Below, one piece after another: positions 1 to 61,238 of a stretch of DNA of 64,000 nt (the stretch's first letter is position 1; each line of letters begins with the position of its first letter). The DNA is from an uncultured Nitrospinota bacterium (lineage in GTDB: Bacteria > Tectomicrobia > Entotheonellia > J063 > CAVPRW01), in NCBI GenBank assembly GCA_963707985.1, contig CAVPRW010000010.1:240303-304302 (forward strand). The letters are read 5' to 3'. The notes beneath the pieces are model-generated. The model searched no databases. It saw nothing but the letters and a program-made list of their open reading frames with translations, and was not told the DNA's origin. The translations under genes were made by a program, and so were the position numbers.

Positions 1-90
1 AGGGGAGTGGTACCTCAAGACCCTTGGGGCCTTAGCGTTGTTCATCTAAGTGGGAACCGCTATAATGCAATGGTTAGGCGACCTAGGCAA

Positions 91-1236
91 CTACCGCTTC
101 TTGGCGCTCGGCCAATGTTCTACCGACGGCACGGGCTGTGCTCTAAGCTGCAGTCCCGTCTTGGCATTGATATGCTCAATCCACCCAGCCTGGAAGTCCA
201 CGATGTCGCCCTCCCTTGGGGGCACCATTGGAGAGTCGTAGTCAGCATAGGATCGTGTCTCAATGGTCTGCATGAATCCGAACTTCAATCCGACACGGAG
301 CCCCTGGTCAGCGACGACGAATTTCTGCCTAATACTGCCGTCTTCGTGTCCATACATTGGACCGTGGTGCAACTCGGGATCGATACTAGGTTTATTCTGC
401 TTTCGGAATGCGATAAGCCTATCCAGCTCCTCATCGGTCATATGATCAGGATGATAGTACAGGCACTGGTTCGCGCTGGCCGCCTGCAAAGCGTTGATGA
501 CCTGAACATCGTAGCCACTGGCCAGAACGACGCGCGACTGGGGGCTACCACACGTATAGGTTTGCGGATCATACATGACGATACAAACGCGGGGGGAGAC
601 TGGCATGATGAGTTGGATGCCCTTTACTAGGAGGCCCCCTGCCCCATAACAGTGCGATAGCCTCGGGTGATGCTCGACAAACTGGTTGGAGATCGCGACC
701 GGATGATCGGAGATCACAAACCCGACCTTTCTGTCGTGGAGCAGAAACTTCACCGGAAGGTCGGCAATGGTGCCTGCTGCGACTGCTGCTGACGCCAAAG
801 CGAAAAGCTGAGGGTCCTTCGGGCGGATCCGCACCGAGCGCAAGTCAATGCCGGCAGCTACTGCTCTTGGCTGCAAGAGCTCCTTGAGTACCGCTTCAGC
901 CATTCGCTCAATACCAGTGGCTGCCCTCAGCGTTCGCCTGTGCTGAAACAGAACATAGAGCCTGAGGTGAATTATCTCCACATCAGAGATGGATTGGAGC
1001 CGAGCGGCGCTCAGATCGCCGAGGGTATCCGCGAATTTTCCTTCGGCGTCGCTGAAGGCCTTCTCCATCACGAGGTCTTTACCATAGAAATAGTCTCGGC
1101 AGCACTGCTCTCGAATTCCGACATCGCGCCTCCTCTTACCCGTATCCAAGATCACCATACTCGTCCGCTTACCATCCCTGGAGAACTTACCCATCTGCAT
1201 TTGAGATACATAATGCTGTCGCTTGTTTTCGGCCAC
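91..1236 (-). CDS. DUF4238 family protein (N-terminal HYVSQ...F motif resembling the HYVPQFYL signature); GTG start with ACGGAG SD
   Basis: 381-aa ORF; N-terminus KRQHYVSQMQMGKFS matches my recollection of the DUF4238 signature; no other recognisable domain. Confidence 0.5.
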   Translation of the reverse strand: MAENKRQHYVSQMQMGKFSRDGKRTSMVILDTGKRRRDVGIREQCCRDYFYGKDLVMEKAFSDAEGKFADTLGDLSAARLQSISDVEIIHLRLYVLFQHRRTLRAATGIERMAEAVLKELLQPRAVAAGIDLRSVRIRPKDPQLFALASAAVAAGTIADLPVKFLLHDRKVGFVISDHPVAISNQFVEHHPRLSHCYGAGGLLVKGIQLIMPVSPRVCIVMYDPQTYTCGSPQSRVVLASGYDVQVINALQAASANQCLYYHPDHMTDEELDRLIAFRKQNKPSIDPELHHGPMYGHEDGSIRQKFVVADQGLRVGLKFGFMQTIETRSYADYDSPMVPPREGDIVDFQAGWIEHINAKTGLQLRAQPVPSVEHWPSAKKR

Positions 1237-1320
1237 TTTCTTGCTCCGTCACTGAAGTTTTGATCAGGTCTCGAGTTCTATATGCTTATGCTCCAGGATG
1301 CTCCAAATCCTTTCATACAG

Positions 1321-1390
1321 CCTAACCCGTCGGTGAGCAGACCCGCAAAAAGCTGTGCTTTTTGCGGGTCTGCTCGACCGACGGGTTAGG
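1321..1390. terminator. Long near-perfect inverted repeat (33/34-nt arms, 3-nt loop) overlapping the stop codon of the DUF4263 gene, 85 bp upstream of the DUF4238 start
   Basis: cctaacccgtcggtgagcagacccgcaaaaagc-tgt-gctttttgcgggtctgctcgaccgacgggttagg read directly; one extra base in the right arm. Confidence 0.6.
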
Positions 1391-2141
1391 CATCACACCG
1401 GCCAACAAGTGGAAGAACTTGATCCATAGCCAAAACCCTGAAGCCATCTAGATAGTGATGCCAGGTTGACCTATTTGCGAGCGCGTCGGCCCTGAGTTCG
1501 TCGGAGATTTTCAGATAGGAGGGGTCAACCCATGCGAAGATACTTTCGCTGACGAAGTACTTGGACACCAGTTCGAAGTGCTCATTCTTCCTGACGCCGA
1601 GATACAGCGGCGTCTTGGTGTGCAGTGATTCCGCAAGACTGTTATAGGAGACGATGTGGAAGTCATCATTCTCGCGCGAACGGATCAAGCCTGTGCGTAT
1701 TTCGTTGCCTTCAAATTCAGACCGACGGCCATGCACCAAGACGTATTTGACATGGCAGGGATTTCGCCGCAATGACTCGGGAACTCGTATGGGTGCGATG
1801 GTGCCATCTGTGAAACCCAAAGCGTTGGACGGGTTGTCAAACCACGCGCGCCATCTGGCAATCTGGTCTAGCCCTGCGTGGAAGTCTGGATGTAGGTCAT
1901 TGGAGCCGTCTTTGAAGTACCGTGACTGAGGCTTCTCGATTTCGACTAGGACGAGATGCCAATCTGCGGAACTCTTCGCCATGTAGAAGAAGTCCGGTGA
2001 ATAGTCTTTTGCAAGCGACAGCTTTCGGAACACCAAGTCGAAATGCACGCCGTGATTCTGTATGAATTCTCGCGGGATCAGGCTCGTGTTCTCTTCAAGG
2101 AAGTGCTGATACCGCTGTTCGGGATGCTCTCCATCCAACAA
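1386..2141 (-). CDS. DUF4263 (Shedu SduA-like) PD-(D/E)xK nuclease-domain protein; TTG start with AAGGGAG SD
   Basis: YQHFLEEN...PDFFY...LVLVEIEKP matches DUF4263 conserved N-terminal block and the D...E-x-K core; 251 aa. Confidence 0.5.
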   Translation of the reverse strand: MLDGEHPEQRYQHFLEENTSLIPREFIQNHGVHFDLVFRKLSLAKDYSPDFFYMAKSSADWHLVLVEIEKPQSRYFKDGSNDLHPDFHAGLDQIARWRAWFDNPSNALGFTDGTIAPIRVPESLRRNPCHVKYVLVHGRRSEFEGNEIRTGLIRSRENDDFHIVSYNSLAESLHTKTPLYLGVRKNEHFELVSKYFVSESIFAWVDPSYLKISDELRADALANRSTWHHYLDGFRVLAMDQVLPLVGRCDA

Positions 2142-2166
2142 CGCGAAGAACTCCCTTCTTAGGAGC

Positions 2167-3480
2167 CGTCTGGAAATAAATTTTACATTAATGCATTAGC
2201 TCCCCGTCTTGCTCTGGGACGCTTATGAGGAAGGATCGTGTAGTTCCACTCGCCGTGGAAGTCGGATCGCTCAAGGCGCATGGCCTCCATCTCGACAGCG
2301 CTCACCTTGAGGCCAATCGGATATTGCCCAGCATCGAGGGCCGCCTGGATGCGCAGCCCCGTGGAAGAGCGAGGACTGCCAATGAGGCTGACGATCACCT
2401 CGCGGCTCAGCAGGGGCTGTCCACGCCAGTTCGCGGTGATGTAGCAAAACATGCGATGTTCGATCTTGTTCCATGTGCTCGTGCCAGGCGGCCGATGGCT
2501 GACCGCCATACGCAGCCCCGTCTCATCGGCGAGCCGCTGCAGCTCGGCCTTCCATAGCCGCGCCCGGGCACTGTTGCTGCCGCCACCATCTGCCGTGATG
2601 AGCAGCTCCTTGGCCCGCGGATACATGGCCGAACCCATCTGGCGCCACCACGCCCGGATCGTCGCTACTGCGAACGCAGCGGTGTCATGGGCCACGCCCA
2701 CGCTGACCCACCCGAGGTTGGCGCCGACGTCGTAGACGCCGTCGGGGATGGCCTTGCCTCGCTCCCCATCGACGAAGTCATACACGCGGACCTCAGGAGG
2801 ATGCCCCGTGGGGTGCCACTCACGGCCAGCATTCTTGAAGTCTCCGAGGAGTTCCTTCTTCTTGGCATCGACAGAAATGACCGGCTGGCCGCGGCGCTGA
2901 AAGTCCTGCACCCGGACGTTGAGATGCTCGAATTGCGCGTGGCGGTCCGGGTGATGGCCCCCCTCGCGGGTCTTGCGCGCTCCCTGTAAGCTGTAGTCCG
3001 CCGCATGGAGCAACTCGCTCACGAGCTGGGGGCTGACCTGGTGCCCCTGCGTTTTGAGCTCGGCCGCGAGCTTGCGGACACTCTTGCACGTCCAGCGCAG
3101 CGGTGATGGCGGGTCGCCTCGGGTCGTGGGCTCGACCAAGGCTTCCAACGCGTGAAGCAGCGTTGGGTCGTGCCTGGTGCGCTTCTTGCGCCCGCCCCCA
3201 GGCCGTCGGACCCGCTCGTCACGCCCCCGAGGCGTCGCCACGGTGCCGGTGTGGATCTCCTCAATGCCAGCGTAGATCGTCGGGCGTGACAGTCCTGTCG
3301 CTCGCGCGGCGGCACTGATACCACCGCGCCCCAGCGCGAGCGCTTCGGTCGCGGCCCAGAGCCGTCGCGCGTGCTCGTTTAGCACCGGGCTCAGCGTCTT
3401 GAACTTCTCCGTCAATGCAGTGTATTCTCGCATGTGGCTTAGTCTAACCCTGGAAAACCATTTGTAAAGGTTATTTCCAG
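2167..3480 (-). mobile_element. ISAzo13-family insertion sequence with about 25-bp imperfect terminal inverted repeats (TCTGGAAATAAnnTTTACA...)
   Basis: Left end gtctggaaataaattttacattaatg (2167-2192) vs reverse complement of right end tgtctggaaataacctttacaaatgg (3455-3480); single transposase ORF inside. Confidence 0.7.
2183..3433 (-). CDS. ISAzo13 family DDE transposase
   Basis: 416 aa; HDTAAFAV...WW...YP.A.ELLITADGGGSN..R.RLWK.ELQ.LA..TG block typical of ISAzo13-like (Rhodopirellula-type DDE) transposases. Confidence 0.85.
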   Translation of the reverse strand: MREYTALTEKFKTLSPVLNEHARRLWAATEALALGRGGISAAARATGLSRPTIYAGIEEIHTGTVATPRGRDERVRRPGGGRKKRTRHDPTLLHALEALVEPTTRGDPPSPLRWTCKSVRKLAAELKTQGHQVSPQLVSELLHAADYSLQGARKTREGGHHPDRHAQFEHLNVRVQDFQRRGQPVISVDAKKKELLGDFKNAGREWHPTGHPPEVRVYDFVDGERGKAIPDGVYDVGANLGWVSVGVAHDTAAFAVATIRAWWRQMGSAMYPRAKELLITADGGGSNSARARLWKAELQRLADETGLRMAVSHRPPGTSTWNKIEHRMFCYITANWRGQPLLSREVIVSLIGSPRSSTGLRIQAALDAGQYPIGLKVSAVEMEAMRLERSDFHGEWNYTILPHKRPRARRGANALM

Positions 3481-3658
3481 ACAGCTACTTAGTGCCTCGA
3501 TGTCGTCGCCGCATAGTGCCACGGGTGTCTCCCGATGCCGAACGCGCAGGGTTCAGCGGCGGGGGCAGAACCACCACCGAGCTATGACTGGCCTACTAAG
3601 CCGCAAACCGCCGCTGTCCCCCCCGTCCGCTGGAACCCTTTGTTAGACCGCCGTGCGT

Positions 3659-3895
3659 CTACTTACGCATGTCTTTCGGGTATTGCGTAGGGTCAAAGCG
3701 GATCTTTCCATCTTTGCCCATGCGCCACGGATTGCTCAGTTCACACACGTGAGGAAAGATTTCGGCATCTAGCACTTGTTGAAGGACCACCCTCATTGTT
3801 CTCCGATACCTCCGGTGCGCCAATTGCTTGTCCTTTTTCTCGGACTCGGCTGTCGTGATGCCCCGGATCGGCGTCTTCCGTTTAGAACGTGCCAT
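3659..3895 (-). CDS. Hypothetical small basic (Lys/Arg-rich) protein
   Basis: 79-aa ORF from internal Met MARSKRKTPIRG...; no recognisable domain. Confidence 0.3.
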   Translation of the reverse strand: MARSKRKTPIRGITTAESEKKDKQLAHRRYRRTMRVVLQQVLDAEIFPHVCELSNPWRMGKDGKIRFDPTQYPKDMRK

Positions 3896-4157
3896 GCGAT
3901 AGCCTTTCGAACCAGTATTGATGCATCTCGGCGAGAAAGAGAGGTGAAATCGGAAAACCTGACGCGTCGCCGAGTACCGAATCAATCATACACTCAGGGC
4001 AGAGGGCCGTGCGTTCGTTTTCCAGGAAGCGAGTGACCTCGGTCGCTGGAAATACTGACGTGCAGTAGAAGCACCCGGCGACCTTGCTCTGACGTAATTC
4101 GGTCTCGTTTGCCGTGCAGTGCCGGTGTGCTACCTCCAACCTATTGTTGATGGACAT
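3882..4157 (-). CDS. Hypothetical Cys-rich zinc-ribbon protein (CxxC-x19-CxxC)
   Basis: 91 aa with CFYC...CPEC spacing typical of a 4-Cys zinc ribbon. Confidence 0.35.
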   Translation of the reverse strand: MSINNRLEVAHRHCTANETELRQSKVAGCFYCTSVFPATEVTRFLENERTALCPECMIDSVLGDASGFPISPLFLAEMHQYWFERLSHGTF

Positions 4158-4284
4158 GTCACACGTACCTCAGCGGTCTAACGCCAGGTTTCAGCCGCGC
4201 CCGGAAGCCGAAGCGAGGAACGAGCGTAGGCTGTAGGGCGTCGGCTGCAAACCCTTGTTCGGCGGTGCTACTGTCGACCCAGCA

Positions 4285-4692
4285 CTACGGCTCTTTGGTG
4301 AAACCTGCTTGGACAAAGTGCTGGTCGAAGGCAAAGGCCGTCCGGATACCCAGCTTCTGCATGACGAGAAAGGAGATACAATCTGTGAGGGAATAATCTT
4401 TGTCTTGATGGCGCTGGAAATATGCCCACCCTTCGTAAAATAACGCCGTTTCGACATGGATGAATTGTACGGATGGACTCTGCAACAGATTGTTCCCCAG
4501 TTGGAGGGCCTTCGCATGCTGTCCCCGACTGTTAAAGAACGTCACGACTTCATCGAAGACGTAGGAGGTCGTGACGAGACGTGGCAGCGCCGCCACGATA
4601 CTCTGCCAGTGTTGCATGGCCGCGTGATGATGCTGGTCATTGATAATTTCCAGCGCGAACAGATAGCCCGTGTCGGCAAACACCGTATTCAT
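4285..4692 (-). CDS. vapC: PIN-domain ribonuclease toxin VapC
   Basis: FADTGYLFAL N-terminus and four conserved acidic residues (D7, E48, D104, D124); overlaps upstream antitoxin gene by 4 nt. Confidence 0.8.
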   Translation of the reverse strand: MNTVFADTGYLFALEIINDQHHHAAMQHWQSIVAALPRLVTTSYVFDEVVTFFNSRGQHAKALQLGNNLLQSPSVQFIHVETALFYEGWAYFQRHQDKDYSLTDCISFLVMQKLGIRTAFAFDQHFVQAGFTKEP

Positions 4693-4946
4693 TGATTGTA
4701 GAGATACCGATCATGGTTGAGCGAGGCATCCTCCACATCGAGGAGGAGCGGCTGGTTGCCAAGGTTCAGGATGGGGTCATCCGCAGGCACCGGCATGACA
4801 ATGATCATGTTTTGCGTTTTCTGGATTTCTACCTCGTCAATGTCTTCGAGCCACCCTTTGGGGATGAGGACACCGTTTTCTGTCACTTTTGTTCTCATAG
4901 CACGCTCCTGGATCGGGGATTTCGAGGCATCAATAATACCATACAA
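4689..4946 (-). CDS. vapB: VapB-like antitoxin (AbrB/MazE swapped-hairpin fold); true start possibly internal Met at 4898
   Basis: TKVTENGVLIPKGWLE..IDEVEI resembles the SpoVT/AbrB DNA-binding hairpin; overlaps vapC in the ATGA arrangement. Confidence 0.6.
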   Translation of the reverse strand: MYGIIDASKSPIQERAMRTKVTENGVLIPKGWLEDIDEVEIQKTQNMIIVMPVPADDPILNLGNQPLLLDVEDASLNHDRYLYNQ

Positions 4947-5146
4947 AACAGTGGGGAGACGGCTGCTATCAGTGGGGCACCCTACAGGGTATGCGACATG
5001 ACCCCCTGGCTTCTGAGTATGCTGGTAGTTTTTCCTCCGCGCCTTTGGCGCCGGACGCTGGAGGCAGTCGGCTGACGCCCAGCGTTCGGCGCAGCGTACC
5101 GACTGCCATCGTGCCTCCCCTTTGTTTTTCCTCTGCCGGCAGCACG

Positions 5147-5905
5147 TCAGTGAGACACAGGTCCCAAAAACTTCGTGATGTACGGCAGCACGAGATTACT
5201 GCGTGCCATGGCCTCCGCGTGTGAGAGGTCAGGCAAGGAAAAGAACGTGACATTGGGCATCTGTTTCACACACTCCCTGACGGCAGGGTACACAGGGTCC
5301 GCTTCGCCAGCAAAGAACAGGCACGGCATGGTCATCGTCGGGAGGACCGCCTCCAGACTCGACCGGTCCTGCGCCACTGCCAGAAGAGCCTCCAGGTCGT
5401 TGGCGAGTGCCCGGGCTTTGCGCCGCGCAGTCATAGGCCCATACAGCTCCTCCAAGCCTGCCACAAAGGCTTCCTTCCCTTGTTCGAGGGCCTTCCGTAA
5501 GGCCTGACGTTGATGATCCATACTGCGTGCATAGGGGTGTGCACCACCGATGATCAAAGCATGGAACTGCTTGGGGGCGTACTGCGCCAGGCCAAACCCG
5601 ATCCATCCACCCATCGAATAGCCAAAGAAATAGGCGTGTGCGATGTGCAGATGATCCAGGACCGCGACAATGTCGCCCGCCCGGCATTGCAGCCCATAGG
5701 CTTCGGGATCATGGGGCTTATCGCTCGCACCGTGCCCCCGTGCATCGATGAGGATAAGCTGGTAGTCGTGCTGCAGCGCGTGTACATAGCCCGCATCGTA
5801 CCAGCTTTCCAGGCTATTGGAAAACCCATGCTGGAGCACCAGCGGGGGCCCCTCCCCTTCGATTTGGTAATGGATTCGGACGTTTTGATTGATGACATAG
5901 GGCAT
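5147..5905 (-). CDS. alpha/beta-fold hydrolase
   Basis: HGFSNS...GYSMGG nucleophile elbow...DLSH; start chosen at MPYVINQ with AAGGAGG SD. Confidence 0.8.
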   Translation of the reverse strand: MPYVINQNVRIHYQIEGEGPPLVLQHGFSNSLESWYDAGYVHALQHDYQLILIDARGHGASDKPHDPEAYGLQCRAGDIVAVLDHLHIAHAYFFGYSMGGWIGFGLAQYAPKQFHALIIGGAHPYARSMDHQRQALRKALEQGKEAFVAGLEELYGPMTARRKARALANDLEALLAVAQDRSSLEAVLPTMTMPCLFFAGEADPVYPAVRECVKQMPNVTFFSLPDLSHAEAMARSNLVLPYITKFLGPVSH

Positions 5906-6926
5906 GGCAGTTTCCTCCTTATTGAAGCAATATACACAGCAATGCTCGCTTCTCTTACCGCGAACACCAAACACGGAGCCGAACCAGTGATTCAACCGTT
6001 TTCTGTATAACACTCCGGATCACGGTTCGCGCATTGTTTGCGACAGTTTCTAATATTTGGGCAAAAATTTAAAAATACAGTACTTTTGAAGTTGGGCTGT
6101 CCGTCGGAATGTTGCTGGGCCGGAGCCGTTGACTTATTCCTCTGCCGGCGAGTTGCCGTGAGGCTGAACAAGAGTTCGTAAAATCGAGCAGTTAGAAGGA
6201 ATGTTTGAAACTGGATTAAAATGGGGTAACTAAAAGCTTAAATCTTGTACCATAGGTTAAACCTTTTGGGGTTCGCATTTCTTGGATGTCCCCTTTCGCT
6301 GTAACGCGTCACGATCAAGCTGTCACGATCGCGTCTCAATGGACAAGGCATTGATTTCGCAAGGTTTCAGAAAAACCCTCCCTGCGGGAAAGGGCAAAAA
6401 TGCAAAATTATAGTACACACAGATCAAAAAAAGCAGAACAATCGTTGACATCCAAAGTATGCTGTATGATATGCGTACTGTAAGAATATCCATCAGTTGG
6501 ATAAGGACGGCGGAGGCGTAGCCCATGAGCGCGTTTCCGGACACTGATACGAGAGACGCCGAGATCCTCGCGGCCAGGCGGGTTCCACGTAAACCATGGT
6601 GGAACGACCAAACATGGGTGCGGTTCTCCCTGCATTGTGGCCATACGTACCGCCACCATCCCGCCGATGCCACGAGCCTTCAGTTGTCTATAGGGAAAGC
6701 TGGCTTCGAAAGGCCAAACGGCCGAACAGCGGGCCCAGGCACCATGCGCGGTTGAATATGACTCCATGTGCTTGTCGCCGCAGTTGCGATCGGTGCGAGA
6801 CGACGACGCGGTCGCACCGACCGCGCCGAGAGGCGGAGCAGATGGTCTCGCGGCAAGGAAGCCGGAGCGTGTCATTGGGCCATCTCGCCTGCTGGAGGAG
6901 CACGCGCATGTCCTCGTTCAGGCCAA

Positions 6927-7805
6927 TCAGGCCAATGGTGCGAGTGAACAGACGAACGTGGCCTGGGGAGCGGTGGAAGCAAAGTTGAAAGACGACATCA
7001 TGCGTCGCCATTCTTCGCCTAAGACGCTACTTGCGTCTGCAGGATAGATGAAAAAGTACTGGGGTTTCATGCTCAAGACCCATGCTGTGGAGGTGACGGG
7101 TGCGGAGGCCAAGCGGTTGTTGGTCGATCTGGCCTTCAGGAGACGGGTGTCAGCTGCGGCGCAAAACGCCCGCGGTGAGCCGCGCCCAATGGCCGGAGCA
7201 AGGCATGAGCGGAGGCTCTTGGGCGTCGGCTCCACTACGATGTTAGCCGGCTTTTGTCGGTTCAAGTTGAAAACCGTTTTGAGAAAACTCTTCACCGACT
7301 CTGTAGCGGCATGAGCTGCGGGGGTATCTGCGCCCACATGGGGGTTCAGTTCCACGCAAGCGTCCTTATAGGTAAAGGGTAGCTTCGTAGCCGCATTGAT
7401 CAACCTCCCCGTTGACTCCTCACGAATTGTGTAGTGACGAACGGTCTGGGCGCTTTCGGCGATCGTTGGTGTCGGACTGCCAAGAGGACTGTCAAACCCG
7501 TGCGGCGCATTCGGATACTCCGTGAGTTGGACGTCGTGCCCGGCACCACGCAGTCGCTCGACATATGCCTTGCAGGGTGCTACTGGATCGTAGTCGTCTG
7601 GACTGCCATGGAATAGGCGGATCGGTCGGTCTGCGACATCCATCTCGGACAGATATGTGGTCATGCAGTCCGGGTAGAAAGGAATGTAGGCGGTAAAATC
7701 GATGGCTGATGCGTTCCAGGTCTGGTGGAATCTCCTTAAGCTAGCGTAGAGAGCCGCTTGCCCACCTCGAGAGAATCCCATGAGGACGATCCGTGATGTA
7801 TCCAC
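6927..7805 (-). pseudogene. Dienelactone-hydrolase family fragment (N-terminally truncated; begins at the GFSRGG nucleophile elbow, long non-conserved C-terminal tail)
   Basis: MGFSRGGQAALYAS...FHGSPDDYDPV...APHGF present but the first ~100 residues of the fold are missing and no upstream continuation exists. Confidence 0.45.
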
Positions 7806-7830: not shown

Positions 7831-8410
7831 TCAAGCAGAGGGAGAGGCCGGTGGTGCGACCCCCAATAAAGCAGCTAAATTGATGACGAGGCTGGGAAAG
7901 AGTTGCGGCCGGAATTCCTCTCCCGCTGCGACGCTCGCCATGCGAAGATAGCCCTGTGGGGTGGCGTGATATTCCTCGATGGCTAGGGTATTCGAATCAA
8001 TGATCCAGTACCAGGTCACACTGTTGGCATAGTAGACCCGAAATTTATGCACTCGATCGCGCGCTGGCATACTGGAGGTCACTTCGACAACCAAGTCGGG
8101 GGAGCCGTGGATTTTGCGGTCTGTTGGATTCAGCAAGGGCAGATGCTCTGTGGCAAGATAGGCGAGATCGGGGATGTAGCCACGTCCATCAGGCAGAAAT
8201 ACATCTACTTCCATGACAACTCTCCCCAACTGGTGCTGTCGTACAAACTGCCGGAGTAGATGCGAGAGCTCACTGACGATATCCTGATGTTCGGGTGTGG
8301 GCAAGGCAACCAAGATCAATTCTCCTTCCTCGTACTCGTAATACGGCGGTCCTTCGGGGAGAGCACGAAACTCTTCCATGGTCATCTGCTGCATACCTGT
8401 CGTGGCCATT
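7831..8410 (-). CDS. Uma2 family (DUF820) putative restriction-endonuclease-like protein
   Basis: MTMEEFRALPE...YEYEEGELILV.LPTPEHQ...IPDLAY... pattern typical of Uma2; start at MATTG with GGAGGA SD. Confidence 0.7.
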
Positions 8411-8432
8411 GACTCGTCCTCCAAAAAATTTG

Positions 8433-9605
8433 CTATATCTGCGGATCGGAGATCAGATCACCGGTCGCAAAGCGTCCCAGGCGGTAGGGCGTGGCATCTA
8501 AAGTCTCATAGCGCCCTAGGCGGATCGCTTCCGAGAGTACTTTGCCGCTGGCCGGAGCTAGCATGACCCCATGTCCGCTGAAGCCTGTTGCCATATAGAG
8601 CCCTGGAAGCTCAGGGTGCGGCCCGAGAATGGGATTTTCATCGGGCGTCACGGCATAGTGGCCGGCCCAGCCGCGTTGTAACTGCACGTCGCCACTGCCT
8701 GGGAGCCGTCGTCGCAGGGTGGGTAAAATATGTGATTCAAACTGCGCCGCTTCCCAGTCGAAGTTGAAGCCTGGTGGCTCATCACGGATGATGTAGGACA
8801 GGAGCAGGTGATTCTCGGTTTCGGTATCATGGCGAAAATGCACATCGCTGCGATCGATGACCATCGGCAGCTTATAGCCGAGTGCCTTTGGCAGCGTTAC
8901 ATAACACGCTTGACGCCGCACCGGCTGCACTGGCAAGCTGATTCCGGCTAACCCGGCGACATGCTGAGCCCAGGCTCCCGATACGATCACCAACGCCTGG
9001 GTGGAGATCTCTCCGCTATCGCGTGTCTGCACCGCGAACGTTTGTCCAGTGGCCGGTGTGAAGCCGATCACCTCGTCCTGAAGCCAGGTGCAGTTCAGTT
9101 CCCGCGAGCGCTCAACAAACCCCTGCAATGCCCCACGCGGGTTGAGGTAGCCGTCACGCTGGCTGAACAGGGCATAGGATACATCCCCGACGTACAGGTC
9201 TGGGAATAACTCATGAACCTGCCCTGGCGGCAGCATCTCGACTTCCACCCCCAGTTGGCGCTGCACTTCATAGCGGCGGAACCAGGCGTCCCGGTTCTGG
9301 TCGTCCAGCAATAGCAAATAGCCGCGCTGGTGAAAATGTGCTTGCGCTCGTCCCCATGCTCCTGACATCACCGCATCGAAACGCTCGTAGAATTGCAGGC
9401 TATAGCGCGCTAGCTGAATGTTACAGGGAACGCCATACAGTTGTCGGACGCCGCCCAGGCTCATAGGGGTGGCGGCGCGGGCATAGGTGGTGTCGCGCTC
9501 AATGACCAGAATGCGGCCGGTGAAGCCATCCTGACGCAAGTGGTACGCGATGCTAGCCCCAATAATGCCGCCGCCGATCAACACCACATCTGCTGTTTGC
9601 ACCAT
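8433..9605 (-). CDS. FAD-dependent oxidoreductase (DAO/glycine-oxidase-like)
   Basis: VVLIGGGIIGASIAYHL dinucleotide-binding motif at N-terminus; 390 aa. Confidence 0.85.
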   Translation of the reverse strand: MVQTADVVLIGGGIIGASIAYHLRQDGFTGRILVIERDTTYARAATPMSLGGVRQLYGVPCNIQLARYSLQFYERFDAVMSGAWGRAQAHFHQRGYLLLLDDQNRDAWFRRYEVQRQLGVEVEMLPPGQVHELFPDLYVGDVSYALFSQRDGYLNPRGALQGFVERSRELNCTWLQDEVIGFTPATGQTFAVQTRDSGEISTQALVIVSGAWAQHVAGLAGISLPVQPVRRQACYVTLPKALGYKLPMVIDRSDVHFRHDTETENHLLLSYIIRDEPPGFNFDWEAAQFESHILPTLRRRLPGSGDVQLQRGWAGHYAVTPDENPILGPHPELPGLYMATGFSGHGVMLAPASGKVLSEAIRLGRYETLDATPYRLGRFATGDLISDPQI

Positions 9606-9712
9606 GGATGACGGTCTCCTCAATAGTCCACGTCTCCTTTCCCTGCCGACAGCCTCCGAGACTCAGCTATGGCTGGGGAGAACAAGAGAGAGCTGGAGAG
9701 TGCGACATTATA

Positions 9713-10675
9713 TCATGGATGCCGGACTGGCAATGGGGACGATGGCATGCAGGGTATAGAGCGGGCGTAGGCATGGAGGAAGGGCCCTTCCTGAGCCGCG
9801 AGTTGGCCAATGAAACGCTCTTCCGCCTGGACATTGAAATCCTTGGCGAGGGTTGCAGCGTTGGACATCTGGGTGCGGTAGAAGCCCCAGGCAAAGAACG
9901 CACCGATGCCAGCGGCGCCTTCCAGTCCGGCTCCGACGCCCCCGATGGTGCCCGCGATGAGCGCGCCATGGAGCCCCAGCCCGATCAAGCCGTCGAGTGT
10001 ATGGCCGGTATAGATTTGTCCGGTGCCGGGGAGTATCGTGGAGAGCATCCTGGCGACGGAGGGAGATCGATGCGGTAGTTCGGGAGGGATGACCAATGCG
10101 GCGGCCAAGCGTTCGCCGGATGCATGGTAAGGGCTGGCAGCGTCCACCTGTGCAAAGGCGTCGCGCGCCTCAGTCCATCGCCGTTGCCGCACGTAACTCC
10201 AGCCCATCAGGTAGGCGGCGCGCTGTGCGATGAGGCTTCCGGGGTACTGGCGCCTCAGCTCGTGGAACAGGCGAATGGCCTCCATTCGATCGCCCCCGCG
10301 GGCATGTGTCTCCGCCATCCACAGAGTGGCTTCTGCCCGCATCGCATCATCTGGCACCGTCTGCGCGATCCGGCGGAACACCTCAAATGCCTGCAGCCAA
10401 CGCTCCCCGCAGAAAAATGCTAGGCCAATCGCCAGTTGGGCCTCCAGAGCCAACGGATGTTCCGGTTGAAAAAAGAGGAAGCGCTGGAACTCACCGATGG
10501 CGCGATAATATTCCCCGGCGGCGAAGAGCGAGTGGGCAAACGCAAAGACCGGTGGCCGGGGAACAGTTGAGGTCGGGTGGGATAGAACGCGTGGTAAGGC
10601 GGGAACCAGCGCAGTGGGGAAGCTTAACCACAGCCCCCACAGACAGCAGAAGACGAGCCGCAACATATGCCCCAC
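9713..10675 (-). CDS. Secreted/membrane TPR-repeat protein with C-terminal Gly-zipper segment
   Basis: N-terminal hydrophobic signal, several TPR-like helical repeats (YYRAIGEFQRF..., EAIRLFHELRRQYP...), Gly-rich hydrophobic C-terminus. Confidence 0.55.
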   Translation of the reverse strand: MGHMLRLVFCCLWGLWLSFPTALVPALPRVLSHPTSTVPRPPVFAFAHSLFAAGEYYRAIGEFQRFLFFQPEHPLALEAQLAIGLAFFCGERWLQAFEVFRRIAQTVPDDAMRAEATLWMAETHARGGDRMEAIRLFHELRRQYPGSLIAQRAAYLMGWSYVRQRRWTEARDAFAQVDAASPYHASGERLAAALVIPPELPHRSPSVARMLSTILPGTGQIYTGHTLDGLIGLGLHGALIAGTIGGVGAGLEGAAGIGAFFAWGFYRTQMSNAATLAKDFNVQAEERFIGQLAAQEGPFLHAYARSIPCMPSSPLPVRHP

Positions 10676-11122: not shown

Positions 11123-11187
11123 GCGTCATCGACTCCGGCTCGCGCCTACCCGCCGCCACTCCGACGGGAAAGGGACTACCGCTTTTG

Positions 11188-13251
11188 CTACTTGAGCAAC
11201 TCCGCCAGAGCCACGGGAGTTGTGGTCGGCATGGAGCAGGCGAAATTGTGGCAGACGTAGGCGGTAGCCTTCCCCTCCACTTGCGTCATCTCGTCTACGG
11301 GCAAATGTGCGAAGGCGTCGGCAGGGCCTCCCGTGGGATCGATCGCCAGCAGGATCTTATTGGGCAGATACGATTCGTGCACCAGACGCAGCAACGACTG
11401 TGTATCGGCCTGATTGCCGCGACCGATGATGACGATTTCCTTGGGGGTCTCCAGGTAGAAGTCCAGGGCGCAGAGCATCTGGCCGAAACTGAACGGTTCG
11501 TCTTCCATCCTATCACGGAACAGACGCAAGGTCTGCTCTCCCTTCTGGAGCAACTCTTCTTCGCCGGTGTAATAATACAACCGCAAGAGGTTGAGAGTCG
11601 CGACCGAATTTCCACCGGGGACGGCATGATCGAAGGGGTCTTTGGGGCGATGGATGAGCGCTTCATGGTCAGGCCCGGTCAGGAAAAATCCGCCCTGCAC
11701 CTCATCCCAGAAATTGGCCAGCGTGGCGCGATTGAACTCCTCAGCCAGCGTCAAGAACCGTTGTTCACCGGTCGACTCGAAGGCGTCAAGCAGACAGGCA
11801 ACAAAGCAGGCATGATCGTCAAGGTAGCCAGCCAGCTTGGCCTGCCCATCCTTGAAGCTATGGAGCAGACGGCCATCGCGCACCAGATGCGACAGCAGGA
11901 ACTCGATCGACCGCACGGCATCCTGCTTCACCTGGTCATCTTCAAGCAGGTTGGCGGCATCGAAAAAGGCCGAGATCATCAACCCATTCCAGGCCACGAT
12001 CACCTTTTCATCCCGAAATGGCTTGATTCGTTCCTCGCGCGCGCTGAAGAGCCGCTGACGGGCCTCGTCGAGCAGGCGCTCGACGGCGGCTGCTTTCTCA
12101 CCGAATTCCTGCGCCACCCAATCGGCTGCTACAGCACGATGCAGAATGCTCTTGCCATGCTCGAAATTGCCCTGTTCATCCACGCCATAGGCTCGACAAA
12201 AGACCTCGCCGATCTCAGGCCCGACCACCGCCGCGACCTCTTCCGGGGTCCAGACGAAAAACTTCCCCTCCTCCCCCTCACTGTCGGCATCCTGAGTGGC
12301 GTAGAAGCCTCCCGCGGACTGGAGCATCTCGCGCTGGACGTACCCCACGGTTTCCTGCACCACGCGCCGGTAGAATGGATTCTTGGTGATACGGTATGCA
12401 TCAGCGTACAGGCGAATGAGCTGGGCATTGTCGTACAACATTTTCTCGAAATGTGGGACCAACCAGTGGGCATCGACTGAGTAGCGATGGAATCCGCCGC
12501 CGAGTTGATCGTAAATTCCCCCTTGTGCCATCTTCTCCAGGCCTAACAAGGCCATGCGCAGGTAGGGCTCGTTCCCTGTCGCCCGCCAATAGCGTAGGAA
12601 TACTGCCAGGAGCATGGGGTTGGGGAATTTGGGTTGCGTGCCGAAGCCACCATAGGTTTCATCGAAGGAATTGTTCAGTTTGCGCGCCGCGTTCTCGATG
12701 ACGGTCTTACCGAGGGGAAGGGCAGACGCACGGAACGTCGACAATCCGTCGAGTCCCTGCAACACCCGCTCCGTCGTCTGGCGGATCTCGGCTTTATGTT
12801 CACGATAGTATTGGGCCACCGCCTCGATGACCTTGGGGAACCCTGGACGGCCGAATCGATCATCGGGGGGATAATATGTTCCACCGTAAAAAGGCTCTCG
12901 GTCAGGTGTGAGGAACATCGTCAGCGGCCACCCGCCACCAACTCCAAACATCTGTACGACATACTGGTAGATCTGGTCCAGATCCGGGCGCTCCTCGCGG
13001 TCGACCTTGATATTCACAAAGTTCTGATTCATGAGCTCAGCGATGGGCGCGTTTTCAAACGATTCATGCTCCATGACATGGCACCAATGGCAGGCTGAAT
13101 AGCCGATGCTGAGCAAAATGGGTTTATCCTCTGCTTTGGCTTTCGCCAGGGCTTCTTCACCCCATCCATACCAATTCACCGGATTATGGGCATGTTGGAG
13201 GAGGTACGGGCTGGTCTCATGAATCAGGTGGTTGGTATAGCGATGGTCCAT
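11188..13251 (-). CDS. Thioredoxin-domain protein of the DUF255/YyaL (SPATA20-like) family
   Basis: [58 protein letters not shown]-terminal thioredoxin-like block followed by six-hairpin glycosidase-like domain. Confidence 0.85.
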
Positions 13252-13506
13252 TGGCTCGCTCACTTTCCGTCTGTACACGACCTTGGCGATGGGGGGAGAC
13301 GAGCGCAGTAGGAGCCTGCGCCTGTTGTCCTCATACTGTACAGTACCATACTGCCATGAGAACCTCAATCGTCTTTGGAAAATTAGTCATATATTTCAAA
13401 AATATACACGAATCAAAACCAATATGCAGGTGGGATCGGTGGTTGAGATGAAGAGGTGGCCGGAGGCGTGGCTTGGCCATATTTTCCAGACAGCCCGTGG
13501 CTGTGA

Positions 13507-14592
13507 CTATCGGCCTGCCCGAAATCGGTACCGCTCCTGCACATAACTTCCCAGTTCCTGACACCAGAGCGGCACATGGGACAGGGCCAACCCCAGTTGA
13601 AGGGGGAGTCTTGGAAATTCGTTCAAAGGTGCGCCCAGGGCCACTGTTGCGGCGATGGGCATATCCCAGCGTTCACGGGCTTCCCCAAGCATCTGCAGCG
13701 GATGACGCCAATGGCAGGCCATATAGTGTACGACTCTCCTGCGCTCACCGGCTCCGAGGCAGCGATCCCATTGCCGTAAGACGGCTGGGATGAGCCAGCG
13801 GGGTAAGTGGTTGGCGTGATCGGCAACCGGGGTGTTTTCGATATCGGCAGCCAGGAGCTGGTGCGCTAGCCCTAGTGTGCAGGCCACCCAACCGGCGTGG
13901 CGGCTATTCCCTCCCAGGCAACGGTCCCAATCGAAGTCCGGCGGCCGAGATTCCAGCGCCGCGGCGATATCACAGAGCCACAGCGGGCGCCAGGCATTGT
14001 GGCGCAGGAAATGGCGGATTAAGACGACCAGATGGTCCTCGGCGGCCAGGATACGGATATCGACGTCGTTGAGACGAGCGGTTTGTGAGCGTGCGTAGAG
14101 AACGTCGAGACTTTGGCCACACATCCACCTTAGGCCGCGATGCAGGTCCACGGGGCATTCGCCACCATTGCCCTCGTTGAGCACGGTCAGGGCCGCACCG
14201 TGTTGTTCGGGGCGCACGACGATATCAAGATCGCCAAACGGACGCAGGCCGGACTCCGGATAAAGCCGGGCCACGGCCCAGCCTTTGATCAAGAGCGGTT
14301 CCACCCCGGCGGCGCGCAGCGCGCCGAAAAGCTGTTGCAGCACCTGCTCACGTACGGTTGTGCGAATGGTGTGCAAACGATAGGCTTGCTGCAGGGTGCG
14401 GGCCGCGGCGGATGTCCGCAGACGGCTGTGTCGAACACGGTGCCAACCGAGCGCCCCTCCTCCCGATCGCAGCAGCAGCGGGGTAACCTGTTGTAACTCG
14501 CCCTCGGATGTAGCCAGGGGAGGAGGGTTATGACGCCAAATTCCCCTCAGCAGTGAGGCCAGGACACTACCGGGGGACGTTACTATACTCAT
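13507..14592 (-). CDS. Nucleotidyltransferase family protein (NTP_transf_5-like, the family that accompanies HPr-kinase homologues in lasso-peptide clusters)
   Basis: FGDLDIVVRP nucleotidyltransferase motif; 361 aa; overlaps upstream kinase gene by 26 nt. Confidence 0.6.
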   Translation of the reverse strand: MSIVTSPGSVLASLLRGIWRHNPPPLATSEGELQQVTPLLLRSGGGALGWHRVRHSRLRTSAAARTLQQAYRLHTIRTTVREQVLQQLFGALRAAGVEPLLIKGWAVARLYPESGLRPFGDLDIVVRPEQHGAALTVLNEGNGGECPVDLHRGLRWMCGQSLDVLYARSQTARLNDVDIRILAAEDHLVVLIRHFLRHNAWRPLWLCDIAAALESRPPDFDWDRCLGGNSRHAGWVACTLGLAHQLLAADIENTPVADHANHLPRWLIPAVLRQWDRCLGAGERRRVVHYMACHWRHPLQMLGEARERWDMPIAATVALGAPLNEFPRLPLQLGLALSHVPLWCQELGSYVQERYRFRAGR

Positions 14593-15418
14593 AGGACTTC
14601 TCCAGATATTTCAGGAGCCGTGGGGCGACTGCGCTGGCCTCGCCACGTCCACCCTTGAGGATGATGGCGTTGGCGGCGACCCGCTGCAGGATAACCAGAA
14701 CATCGGCGGGTTGGCGGCGCGCCGACACCGTATTCGCCAACAAGGCTAACACCCCGTGCCCAGGGGAGAGACGTCGCGGTCGCCAGCTGGCCCCAGCCTT
14801 GTAATGGCTAACCACTACAAGACCGATGGGCAGGGGCGTGGAGCCCGTACTGCCACTCAGCGTCTCTGCGGGGTGCCGAATCGCCCTCCCTCCGGGATCC
14901 GCACGCAGGGACAACGGCTTGAGATATGGATGTACTCGTCCCTGCTCATCCAACACGGCATATTCATCCGAATAATAGGTCGCACCGGCAGTTACCAAGG
15001 CTGCGACCAGTGTACTTTTGCCGCTGTGGCTCCGCCCTGGGATGAGGACGGCCTTCCCTCGCCAGCCGACCACACCGGCGTGTACGAACCGCCGACGGGG
15101 TGCGGCTTCAGCCACATGCAGATGGACATGCGCTTCAAGGGCGTCGAAAACCTCCTCAAGATCGAGTGATCGCGCCACACGCAGCGCATTCGCATACAGT
15201 AAGTGGAAACGACGCACTGCCGCCCTTGCTCCAGCTCCCCCTACGACCAACGAATAGAGGATATCCACCTGGGGGGAGGAGGCGGGTTTCCATGCCGGCG
15301 GCAGATAGATTCCAACTCGTTTCAGCACATCGGTCTCGCTCACTCGGATCCCGACGCGCACCCCATAGGCGGTAAAGGCCCGTCCAGCCGCCCAGCCCAG
15401 GCGGTCGATTTTCTCCAT
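14567..15418 (-). CDS. HPr kinase/phosphorylase-like P-loop kinase (HprK-related kinase)
   Basis: GRSHSGKSTL Walker A in the position and context of the HprK C-terminal domain (GxSGxGKS). Confidence 0.65.
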   Translation of the reverse strand: MEKIDRLGWAAGRAFTAYGVRVGIRVSETDVLKRVGIYLPPAWKPASSPQVDILYSLVVGGAGARAAVRRFHLLYANALRVARSLDLEEVFDALEAHVHLHVAEAAPRRRFVHAGVVGWRGKAVLIPGRSHSGKSTLVAALVTAGATYYSDEYAVLDEQGRVHPYLKPLSLRADPGGRAIRHPAETLSGSTGSTPLPIGLVVVSHYKAGASWRPRRLSPGHGVLALLANTVSARRQPADVLVILQRVAANAIILKGGRGEASAVAPRLLKYLEKSYEYSNVPR

Positions 15419-15921
15419 TCACGTCGACCCAGACTTGAGATAGGGGAGAATCGTTTCGGCCACTGCTCGTCACTCCCATGCGAATGGCATCATGTCCTGA
15501 ACCGCGTGCCTGACGACTCCCCATGGTGCAGAGGCGCCGACACACCCATCGCTGATACACGCACCACTGGTACAATAGGGTCAACTGGAGTCACTGATCT
15601 CGATCCTAACACGGAAGATAAAATTGATCAATAAAATTCATAAATATATGGAGAATAAGCCAATAACTGTACTCATAGTTGCTGACGCAGTTGATTCGAT
15701 ATTTGCATTAGCTTCCATAAGACTTATAGGGTTTGAAGAGCTGCACCCAGCACTGTGCCCTGGGCAGCAGGCGATGCGCAAATCTATGCAGCGATCGGGT
15801 GAATGCGTCTAGGCTGGGAAAGAATCGAACGAGGCAGGAAACGAGCCGTGGACTCAGCCACATCTTCCTTGACCCGGAATAGGAGACCACAAGCGTTTAG
15901 ACGGCACCGAGCGCAACGCGC

Positions 15922-16254
15922 TTACGGCAGTTTTCGGATAGCGACAATGCGAGATTTTTTCTCCTCACTGACCCGAAAATGGATACGATCTCCGGCTTTG
16001 AGGCCATTGAGCAGGGCTGGATCCGACACGCTGAATGGCATTTCCATTGGTCCCATGAAATACCCAGGCGCTCGAATGGGCTCGTGATCCAGCAGAATCT
16101 GCCCTTGATCTGCCATAATGCCGACCACCGTTCCTTCTGATTCGTACGGACCCCACTCGCCAGCCTGGAGCCCTGGGATGGCACAAACCGTCCAGAACGT
16201 GATAGCCAGCATGATTGTAGTCAATCGAACCACTCGGCATTGGCACAGGCGCAT
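15922..16254 (-). CDS. cusF: CusF-like periplasmic copper-binding protein
   Basis: Signal peptide then ILLDHEPI...FMGPMEMPFSV...LKAGDRIHF matches the CusF H-x-M-x-M metal site and beta-barrel motif. Confidence 0.55.
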   Translation of the reverse strand: MRLCQCRVVRLTTIMLAITFWTVCAIPGLQAGEWGPYESEGTVVGIMADQGQILLDHEPIRAPGYFMGPMEMPFSVSDPALLNGLKAGDRIHFRVSEEKKSRIVAIRKLP

Positions 16255-16834
16255 GGCGGGGGTCGCGCTCTGACCGGTATTCGGCGAGACAGAATATTTC
16301 AATCTTGTGTGGACTGATTGAGATGTTGTGCGACGTTGTGTCATAACTGAGTTCCCTCTCGACCCTGGATTGCCAGATATCAGACGACGGCACGTCTGCT
16401 GCTCAGGTGCGAGCCAATCCGGAGGGCGTTGCACTCATCCTCTCGAGGAGGTAACCCATCGGATTGGCGGCCTTCGGTGGGGAGAAGGCCAGCCTCCGCG
16501 ACGTTAGTGGGATTATAACATGCTCCCCAAGCCGGGTAACATGATAGTAACCGCTTAAGCCTAGGCTCGTTGACACCGGGCGACAGCACGCTAGAATATC
16601 ATGCTGACATGGCAACGGGATCGATTCAGGCAACGAATGGCACAGTCCCGGCGGATAGCCTCCATAGAATCCGAGGGTTTATGGCTTGAAGTACGGCCGG
16701 ATCACCTCACATGCCACGCGTTCCATCCTGGATGGCTACAAGTTATCACGCAAGTATTTCCCCGGTTAGATCTACATTGTGCCCCGTCGGGTCGGGTGCC
16801 TCATGTCCCGATGCTCGGGTGCAGAGGGGGTGAT

Positions 16835-17200
16835 GTGCGCTTTCGCGTCCATCTTCGTGCCCCACCGCCGATTGTGATTCCAATAAACTATGCGCATCAG
16901 CTCGCCTCCGTCGTCTACCACCTTCTCGGCCGCTCTTCTTCAGCATATAGGGCGTTTCTGCATAGTCAGGGCTATGGCACAGGCGATCGTCGCTTCAAAC
17001 TGTTCACCTTCTCCCCTCTCTTTGGTCAGCCACGCCAGGTGGTGGCCGGGCATTTACGCTTCGAGACTACCGCAGTGACATGGTCCATCACCTCCCCAGT
17101 GGAAGCCTTCATCCGACATGTGGTCCAGGGCATTCTGAGCCTCGATCAGATCGAGATAGCCGGCGTTACTTTCATAGAAAAGAGGAGACTTATGGCATGC
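16835..17200 (+). pseudogene. cas6: Cas6 endoribonuclease N-terminal fragment (C-terminal half incl. Gly-rich loop missing; reading frame runs into the HEPN gene)
   Basis: VRFRVHLR...PINYAHQLASVVYHLLG...AFLHSQGYG...FKLFTFSPLFGQPR...HLRF aligns to Pyrococcus-type Cas6 (RFLIRL..PYNHQYYLQGLIY...KLHD..KPFVFSLLFGNPR); GTG start with GAGGGGG SD. Confidence 0.55.
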
Positions 17201-17655
17201 CTGGCCGCTACGAAGATTGGTTACGGCAGGCGCGACGAGATATCAGCCACGCGCAAAACGCCTTGGAGGATGGCGATTACGATTGGGCCTGCTTTGCAGC
17301 CCAGCAAGCGGCCGAGAAAGCCGTTAAAGCCCTCTTCCGATTCCTCGCTGCAGACGCTTGGGGTCATTCCGTGAGCTTGTTACTCGGCAGGCTCCCCGAG
17401 ACATACAGACCTCTCGAAGCCATGATCGATGGCGCCAAGGAACTAGATAAGCATTACATCCCTTCGCGTTATCCCTATGGCTTTGACGAGGGTGCCCCAC
17501 TTGATTACTACACCAAAGATGAAGCCACACGGAGCATAGGCCATGCGCGAGTCATCATCACCTTCTGTGAAGGTCACATTTACCAACCGAGAACAAATCC
17601 TCACAGCCCTGAAGAATCTGATCCAGGAGTGGGCCCAACAACACCCGGAGCTTGA
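17197..17655 (+). CDS. HEPN-domain protein (HepT-like toxin of HEPN/MNT pair)
   Basis: DYDWACFAAQQAAEKAVKA...LDKHYIPSRYP typical HEPN; AGAGGAG SD 9 nt upstream of ATG. Confidence 0.7.
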   Translation: MPGRYEDWLRQARRDISHAQNALEDGDYDWACFAAQQAAEKAVKALFRFLAADAWGHSVSLLLGRLPETYRPLEAMIDGAKELDKHYIPSRYPYGFDEGAPLDYYTKDEATRSIGHARVIITFCEGHIYQPRTNPHSPEESDPGVGPTTPGA

Positions 17656-31105: not shown

Positions 31106-31207
31106 TTGCGGACCAGTGCTAGTGTATGTTTGAAACCTGCAGCAAAGCCCGACACGGATATCTTTCCACCGCGAACATGGTGATGGCAGAAGAGGAGTGC
31201 AAGCCTC

Positions 31208-31594
31208 ATGGCGGGAAGCAGTGACACCTATCACGAATCGCTCGATAAACTTTCTTCCACAACCCAAGACATGCACCGGGCGCTCGTCTCTCTGCAGGAA
31301 GAATTGGAGGCCGTCGACTGGTATCAACAGCGCGCGGATGCCACAGAAGACGCCGAGCTCAAAGCCATCCTGGTGCATAACATGCGTGAGGAGATCGAAC
31401 ACGCCTCGATGGTCCTGGAGTGGTTGCGACGCAACCATCCGGACTTTTCAACACATCTACGCACCTATCTCTTTCAGGAAAAACCGATTCTTGACATTGA
31501 AGCGGTAGACCGTGCAGCCAATGGCAATGGTGCAGCGAATCCGGGACGACCACAGCGCATGGGACTGACAATCGGGACGATGAAAGGGGAGTAA
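31208..31594 (+). CDS. Encapsulated ferritin-like protein (EncFtn/Flp) with C-terminal encapsulin targeting peptide (GLTIGTMKGE)
   Basis: HESLDKLS...ALVSLQEELEAVDWYQQR...EIEHASMVLEWLRRNHPDF matches EncFtn; GAGGAG SD. Confidence 0.75.
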   Translation: MAGSSDTYHESLDKLSSTTQDMHRALVSLQEELEAVDWYQQRADATEDAELKAILVHNMREEIEHASMVLEWLRRNHPDFSTHLRTYLFQEKPILDIEAVDRAANGNGAANPGRPQRMGLTIGTMKGE

Positions 31595-31598
31595 ATGT

Positions 31599-61032: not shown

Positions 61033-61111
<79 letters not shown>

Positions 61112-61123
61112 TATGACGCACAA

Positions 61124-61197: not shown

Positions 61198-61238
61198 CTG
61201 GCTCGGGCGCTCTCCCTACGGACGACCGAACGGTTGAT

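Follow-up and report, generated by a model that had tools for sequence, protein, structure and literature searches.

The start of a 64,000-nucleotide (nt) stretch of DNA from an uncultured Nitrospinota bacterium (contig CAVPRW010000010.1; the whole stretch is referred to here as the window) carries two adjacent minus-strand open reading frames (ORFs), 91–1236 and 1386–2141, with a long hairpin between them. The question that this locus raises is whether the two genes are a functional pair, with the hairpin dividing their expression, or whether they lie side by side for another reason. The original prediction, which had placed the two ORFs as given here, assigned them to DUF4238 and to DUF4263, the nuclease domain of SduA. 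Both assignments were confirmed by Pfam: ORF 91–1236 matched PF14022 (98.6 bits, E 5.5e-28, profile positions 1–280 of 281), and ORF 1386–2141, of 251 amino acids (aa), matched PF14082, SduA_C (74.2 bits, E 1.8e-20, cut-off 27). The link of both families to phage defence was likewise upheld, as Shedu is an established nuclease system and a DUF4238 protein protects against T7 (PMC9122126). It is very probable, in our judgement, that the two genes are independent integron cassettes, that the hairpin is the attC site bounding them, and that the Shedu gene (sduA) has been split by an insertion sequence (IS).

Coordinates of the array are those of window 1–7248, with the minus strand read as the coding strand. 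For comparison, we used an ENA metagenome contig (L001) and a Logan contig with a 96%-identical sduA cassette (L003), together with further sduA loci from Salinispirillum marinum (L002), Vibrio parahaemolyticus (L004 and L005) and Xanthomonas sacchari (L006), and the loci of three close DUF4238 homologues (L007, L008, and L009). The leftward continuation of the array past the window start was read from L001 as a proxy.

The hairpin between the two genes

An inverted repeat with 33 of 34 nt paired had been described as overlapping the stop codon of the DUF4263 gene, 85 bp upstream of the DUF4238 start. The repeat is real, with arms at 1320–1353 and 1357–1391, but the count was slightly off: all 34 positions are paired around a 3-nt loop, and one G (1376, plus strand) is left unpaired. 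Similarly, the overlap with the stop codon was correct, and the distance from the hairpin end to the GTG start of DUF4238 at 1236 proved to be 83 nt. The final Ala codon of the SduA ORF is likewise within the hairpin. When folded with DNA parameters, the 72-nt hairpin gave −44.7 kcal/mol (z = −15.7 from 200 shuffles, none of which equalled it). Its sequence is single-copy within the window.

Both ends of the hairpin carry core sites of the attC type. On the coding strand, R'' (GCCTAAC) reads 1391->1385 and R' (G|TTAGGC) reads 1326->1320, both exact to RYYYAAC and GTTRRRY, and the SduA stop codon TAA (1386–1388) lies inside R''. When RYYYAAC...GTTRRRY was searched strictly with paired flanks, 1320–1391 was the sole match in 64 kb. 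The site is an imperfect palindrome within the range of roughly 55–150 nt that folds as a single strand, and it stands directly 3' of a promoterless, co-oriented ORF in an array of co-oriented sites. Judged by this anatomy, the hairpin is the integron attC site of the sduA cassette.

The unpaired base gives the site a polarity. G1376 is extrahelical on the 3' arm of the bottom strand, 16 nt from the end, and the first bulge of another attC site of the array (4176–4263) has the same position. In strand and position it agrees with the bulges, two per site, of all three further sites of the array (3537–3648, 4176–4263, and 7161–7248). Since the unpaired base is on the 3' arm of the plus strand, the plus strand serves as the bottom strand of the attC, with the minus strand as its top strand. 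This orientation is canonical: the cassette ORF is on the top strand with R'' beside its stop, and the X. sacchari attC has the same polarity. During recombination, the single-stranded plus (bottom) strand would fold with the R''/R' pair GCCTAAC/GTTAGGC at the base of the stem, and G1376 would mark the recombinogenic strand. An integron integrase would then cut between G1326 and T1325, and the DNA from 1325 downwards would be the next, independent cassette, with DUF4238.

The original prediction had taken the hairpin for an intrinsic terminator or a processing site, by which a two-gene transcription unit would be partitioned. Its position between two co-oriented genes, over the upstream stop codon, would suit such a role, and as RNA the hairpin is very stable (−67.9 kcal/mol with RNA parameters). 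Nevertheless, no T-run follows the stem, the coding strand continuing with TGTATGAAAGG, and a terminator scan of 1–2400 called nothing at the hairpin. The 34-bp stem far exceeds the length of a typical terminator. Nor would a terminator account for the exact core sites at the ends, the bulge confined to one strand, the further attC sites or the cassette polymorphism described below, and the two genes are unlinked in every other locus examined. We consider this explanation very improbable. A search of window 1–7400 against Rfam at permissive thresholds gave no family match. It may be noted that attC stems have been reported to affect the translation of downstream cassettes, and a secondary effect of the attC stem at the RNA level is plausible.

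Proposed cassettes and their rearrangement

Three more attC sites were found upstream (Table 1), making four co-oriented sites on one strand in window 1–7248, with more in the L001 continuation. They came from a looser scan, in which core-site matches were combined with fold pairing of the AAC with the GTT triplets, plus reading of the sequence. As a positive control, the pattern-and-fold scan recovered the classical attC sites in the X. sacchari, V. parahaemolyticus, and Salinispirillum loci. The attC sites found are 60–125 nt long and align poorly. Those of the array fall into two conserved sequence types, and the differences in their L-box arms are compensatory. The bottom strands of 3537–3648, 4176–4263, and 7161–7248 share one layout when folded: the R and L stems are separated by an unpaired spacer, and the L stem has two single-base bulges on its 3' arm, five or six pairs apart. 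The site at 3537–3648 closes a cassette with two small ORFs (3882–4157 and 3659–3985) and aligns with two more attC sites in L001. In all likelihood, window 1–7248 belongs, on its minus strand, to a gene-cassette array of the integron type.

Table 1. Features of the proposed cassette array, in window coordinates
Feature	Position	Strand	Evidence
Putative attC of the DUF4238 cassette, 5' part; remainder past window start	1..79	-	R'' GCCTAAC 79->73
DUF4238 gene (GTG start, 381 aa), the sole ORF in its cassette	91..1236	-	PF14022, AF2, L001 copy
Putative attC of the SduA cassette (the reported hairpin)	1320..1391	-	core sites, fold, L001 break, L003 allele
sduA 3' fragment (predicted Type 2 Shedu nuclease)	1386..2157	-	PF14082, PADLOC SduA; mechanical ORF 1386–2141 from TTG
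Target-site duplication CTAAG (minus-strand reading), first copy	2158..2162	.	flanking repeat
ISAzo13-family IS, 1325 bp; transposase 2183–3433	2163..3487	-	transposase match, ~25-bp inverted repeats
sduA 5' fragment: GTG start 3522, first 11 codons; 3488–3492 = second CTAAG	3488..3522	-	rejoined frame
Putative attC upstream of the SduA cassette	3537..3648	-	R'' GTCTAAC 3648->3642, R' G|TTCGGC 3543->3537
Putative attC past the VapBC-like cassette (PIN toxin 4285–4692, antitoxin 4689–4946)	4176..4263	-	core sites + fold
Putative attC past a truncated dienelactone-hydrolase-like gene	7161..7248	-	core sites + fold; joined to DUF4238 cassette in L001

The first bases of a cassette are the final six of the R' before it, and its end is its own R''; when the cassette is genuine, these two sequences complement each other. 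The complement was exact for the DUF4238 cassette (start TTAGGC 1325->1320 and GCCTAAC 79->73), whose R'' lies 12 nt past the stop codon and complements G+TTAGGC exactly. It was also exact for the two-small-ORF cassette (TTAGAC and GTCTAAC) and for a HicAB cassette in L001. The sduA cassette showed one mismatch (TTCGGC and GCCTAAC).

The cassettes were found in other arrangements in the two metagenome contigs. L001 encodes an identical DUF4238 protein, and window 87–1338 matches this contig at 99.8% identity; homology in fact breaks off directly past GCCTAAC, where the junction GCCTAA|C equals the G|TT crossover of R'. Upstream of its DUF4238 cassette, L001 has the attC corresponding to window 7161–7248. 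Since the DUF4238 cassette is joined to that attC in L001, window 1327–7164 is missing there, and with these 5.8 kb sduA, the IS, the small-ORF cassette, VapBC, and the hydrolase. In L003, the sduA cassette has the same upstream GTTCGGC, 15 nt before the GTG, and the same attC site; it is followed by unrelated sequence or a different cassette, with no DUF4238. When the neighbours were checked, DUF4238 was next to SduA at none of six other SduA loci, and SduA was next to DUF4238 at none of four other DUF4238 loci. Hence, with the hairpin as attC and the cassettes reshuffled in L001 and L003, the two genes would be two independent cassettes and not an operon. On these comparisons their adjacency is incidental, and the earlier notion of the tandem pair as a meaningful unit had to be given up, as no other locus examined has both genes side by side.

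A homology search with SduA returned 166 homologues, whose modal length is 267 aa; the genera represented include Xanthomonas, Vibrio, Stenotrophomonas, Pseudomonas, Aeromonas, Burkholderia, and Salinispirillum. In both V. parahaemolyticus loci and in S. marinum, GTTAGGC lies 17–20 nt before the sduA start, and X. sacchari has the variant GTTTTAGAC at that position. At the other end, the stop codon of the Vibrio and Xanthomonas copies is overlapped by R'' (GCCTAAC or GTCTAAC), and the Salinispirillum copy has the variant GCCTAAT just past its stop. Each of these four sduA genes is followed by an attC site, which is species-typical in Vibrio and Xanthomonas. Read from these boundaries, the SduA family is one of cassette genes.

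Another possibility is that the hairpin is a palindrome unrelated to integrons, such as a repetitive extragenic palindromic (REP)-like sequence, the end of a miniature inverted-repeat transposable element (MITE), or an IS-associated structure. The region is rich in IS elements (ISAzo13 in the window, IS110 and IS630 in L001), the window copy of the hairpin is almost perfect, and no integrase is nearby. Such a palindrome is highly unlikely all the same, as the hairpin occurs once in the window, matches the attC core consensus at both ends, and takes the same position relative to the stop codon as the bona fide SduA attC sites of Vibrio and Xanthomonas. Moreover, the rearrangement junction in L001 falls exactly in the core site. 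Least likely of all is a two-component defence system of the KELShedu kind, with DUF4238 as the missing sensor of the short SduA: Shedu systems of two components are on record (10.1101/2025.09.13.674623), the SduA of this locus lacks a sensor domain, and the genes are adjacent and co-oriented, but an attC lies between them, L001 has DUF4238 without SduA and L003 SduA without DUF4238, the loci L002 and L004–L006 have no DUF4238 neighbour and L007–L009 no SduA neighbour, SduA makes up a cassette by itself in many genera, as a single ORF of ~267 aa, and one DUF4238 protein protects E. coli alone (PMC9122126).

Several observations weigh against independent cassettes bounded by attC sites. The stem of 1320–1391 is atypical in being fully paired: the unpaired central spacer is missing, and only one base is extrahelical, where canonical attC sites have two or three. 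An unpaired central spacer is typical of attC sites, not obligatory, and the L003 allele of the site does have one, along with a second irregularity and, in its stem, an A-T pair replaced by G-C, which is a compensatory change. The L003 allele is more canonical-looking than the window copy because of that spacer and second irregularity. A near-perfect 34-bp attC stem could recombine differently, or insulate the downstream cassette at the RNA level too; as RNA, the stem could still influence expression of the downstream gene. The attC of the DUF4238 cassette is long (~184 nt), folds less cleanly (z = −3.6), and lies mostly outside the window; window 1–86 is identical to L001 13844–13759, and the L001 continuation reaches GTTAGGC at 13943–13949. 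The DUF4238 homologues of L007, L008, and L009 are not in cassettes and have no clear attC. Detection of attC sites was by our own pattern-and-fold scan. By tblastn with an IntI1 query, the window, L001, and L002 gave no integrase match, and neither the window nor L001 showed an attI site or a Pc promoter. Likewise, a Pfam scan of the ten ORFs right of the array showed no tyrosine recombinase, and the ORFs upstream of the array are ordinary genes. With no integrase in the window or L001, the array formally counts as an attC cluster that lacks an integrase; alternatively, it is the distal part of a larger integron.

The upstream end of the array is, as read from its sequence, rearranged: the hydrolase gene is truncated, and the match to L001 stops inside a Uma2 gene at 8064, which marks another rearrangement point. 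This gene, for a Uma2-family putative endonuclease (7831–8424), adjoins the array and matches the PADLOC candidate system PDC-S03 (88 bits). Between 4946 and 7160, where the boundary of the hydrolase cassette would lie, there was no confident attC site. A degenerate GCCGAAC at 5087–5093, with attC-like sequence and no pairing partner, may be a decayed attC, and an AT-rich, gene-poor stretch (6000–6500) lies upstream of the hydrolase cassette. The mechanical ORF 6927–7805 runs through the attC at 7161–7248.

Mobile elements were also seen in L001. An IS110-family element (8690–9862) lies inside the attC equivalent to window 7161–7248; attC sites are the target of a subgroup of IS110/IS1111 elements. 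The DUF4238 stop codon is followed, 4 nt on (window 86/87), by a separate 2.6-kb insertion (11151–13758) that includes an IS630-family transposase. Further along L001, at 15315–17101, a two-gene pair (288 and 299 aa) matches AriA/AriB of PADLOC, a PARIS-like ATPase and TOPRIM protein. This pair is in the same cassette array, past the HicAB and small-ORF cassettes, in keeping with an array that stores defence genes.

The sduA and DUF4238 genes

The AlphaFold2 (AF2) model of SduA had a pLDDT (predicted local distance difference test) score of 90. Its best PDB matches by Foldseek were the Shedu structures 8TI9, 8PS4, 8PS5, and 8TI8 (from Bacillus cereus and E. coli), with FokI and BamHI next. D67, E84, E86, K87, and Q110 (268-aa numbering, explained below) are invariant in 24 homologues and are present in the window copy. 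The PD-(D/E)xK motifs have been described for B. cereus Shedu (Gu et al., 10.1101/2023.08.10.552793), and we infer from their positions that these five residues fit motifs II, III, and IV. The PD-(D/E)xK nuclease fold proposed earlier is thus also the one predicted by the model, with its acidic and lysine residues conserved. A search of PDB sequences, with the single SduA and with a profile of the 24 homologues, gave no match.

SduA has no other domain beyond the nuclease domain, and the earlier remark that an N-terminal sensor is lacking was correct. Type 2 Shedu consists of the nuclease domain alone and has been suggested to be constitutively active, telling foreign DNA by its sequence or modification (Gu et al., 10.1101/2023.08.10.552793). 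By its domain content, the SduA of this locus is a Type 2 Shedu, and the intact protein would attack invading DNA.

The length of 251 aa that had been given for the protein proved to be an artefact of the IS, the native length being 268 aa. Homology to other SduA proteins runs in frame upstream of the TTG start to 2157, which is the boundary of an IS whose transposase matched the NCBIfam model ISAzo13 NF033519 (556 bits) and PF07592 (442.7 bits). The IS has ~25-bp terminal inverted repeats and is flanked by a 5-bp direct repeat, CTAAG; it was inserted in codon 12 of sduA. When the IS and one copy of the repeat were removed, joining 3522..3488 to 2157..1386 gave an open frame of 268 aa, with its GTG start preceded by GGGAG, 15 nt past the R' of the upstream attC. 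Against the PADLOC SduA model PDLC00378, the 251-aa ORF scored 293.8 bits from model position 20, and the rejoined protein scored 304.8 bits from model position 5. An intact 268-aa allele, P0121, with the same N-terminus (MALRGDDIEALRSEFFALL...), was found in another sample.

These comparisons identify the 251-aa ORF as a remnant of a 268-aa gene, and not a native gene. In the AF2 model, residues 5–20 form helix 1, and residues 1–17 are absent from the 251-aa product. Having lost most of helix 1 as well as the native start codon and ribosome-binding site, the remnant is probably inactive or crippled. The transposase falls in a 90%-identity cluster of 329 sequences, and the element is therefore common in related metagenomes.

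The DUF4238 gene is intact. The family is large (2527 representatives at E<=1e-3, typically of 370–390 aa), and the protein was modelled by AF2 with a pLDDT of 93.6 and a predicted TM-score (pTM) of 0.91. Thirteen polar residues are invariant in 70 homologues, including H8, Q44, R101, D159, D177, N184, D223, Y227, N248, Q251, and R341; this set resembles a catalytic site and suggests an enzyme. The only viral structural neighbour of the model was a protein of Stenotrophomonas phage Smp131, which we take to be a P2-like phage. A tblastn search of phage records gave one weak match (27% identity), and a profile search of PDB sequences gave chance matches only; the fold is so far unmatched. PADLOC v2, which had been proposed as a check for both proteins and which recognized SduA, had no match for DUF4238.

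A single DUF4238 protein from a hotspot in a P2-like prophage protects E. coli against T7 (Rousset 2022, PMC9122126), and the family is listed among defence systems without an assignable mechanism. Close homologues of the protein studied here (L007–L009), 70–73% identical, occur in three unrelated mobile contexts, including plasmid-like and prophage-like ones. The protein is a candidate single-gene anti-phage protein, intact and standing alone. As a tentative further step, it might be an enzyme of a new structural type acting as a self-sufficient anti-phage effector, because the model is confident, thirteen polar residues are invariant, and no mechanism has been published. If this is so, its compact 1.3-kb integron cassette would be a convenient natural unit for testing it.

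Elsewhere in the window, a Cas6-like ORF (16601–17374; PADLOC Cas6b, 93.7 bits) was found, and neither a CRISPR array nor further cas genes were detected in its vicinity. Ordinary chromosomal content includes a glycogen branching enzyme, an encapsulin-like protein (31599–32402), and a maltooligosyl-trehalose synthase-like protein within 27248–35595, and a cluster of three tRNA genes at 61033–61311.

Likeness to known systems

The locus adds one more case of cassette arrays that store small anti-phage genes, here in an uncultured bacterium; the stock would comprise Shedu, DUF4238, toxin–antitoxin pairs and, just past the window in the L001 continuation, the PARIS-like pair. The IS-split sduA is evidence that such defence stores decay. 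Two lessons may be drawn for the scanning of genomes: a long hairpin over a stop codon that ends in GCCTAAC/GTTAGGC points to a recombination site and not a terminator, and neighbours in a cassette array need not be a functional pair.

With KELShedu (10.1101/2025.09.13.674623), the locus shares a DUF4263 nuclease beside a second gene. It differs in that the partner is not conserved and the neighbour belongs to a separate cassette.

The DUF4238 protein resembles Rst_DUF4238 (PMC9122126) in being a stand-alone protein with a single DUF4238 domain, on mobile DNA and with no conserved partner, its neighbours differing among the window, L001, L007, L008, and L009. Its setting is an integron cassette, in contrast to the prophage hotspot of Rst_DUF4238, and it has no PADLOC match.

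Like canonical attC sites (59–60 nt in Xanthomonas, ~125-nt repeats in V. parahaemolyticus), the site at 1320–1391 has R'' and R', forms an imperfect palindrome with an extra base on the 3' arm of the bottom strand, and lies just past an ORF with the stop codon inside R''. It differs in its 34 contiguous pairs, in having no spacer, and in having one extrahelical base against two or three.

Compared with Type 2 Shedu (10.1101/2023.08.10.552793), the SduA described here has the nuclease domain only, finds its best structural matches in B. cereus and E. coli SduA, and conserves the motif residues. Its identity to the solved Shedu proteins is 12–15%, its motif III reads E-I-E-K against E-x-K, and it is a predicted nuclease whose ORF is not intact but split after codon 11.

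The closest likeness is to the Shedu cassettes of chromosomal integrons, in which Shedu is the second most frequent defence system (Darracq et al., 10.1101/2024.07.02.601686). There, as here, a compact Shedu nuclease is the sole ORF of an attC-bounded cassette, and toxin–antitoxin cassettes (VapBC, HicAB) and other defence genes lie alongside; homologues 65–72% identical occur in Vibrio and Xanthomonas arrays. What sets the present locus apart is that no integrase was found within reach, the array is interrupted by IS elements, the gene is split by ISAzo13, and the attC stem is unusually perfect. The presence of Shedu in integron cassettes is already published, and the case described here fits that pattern.

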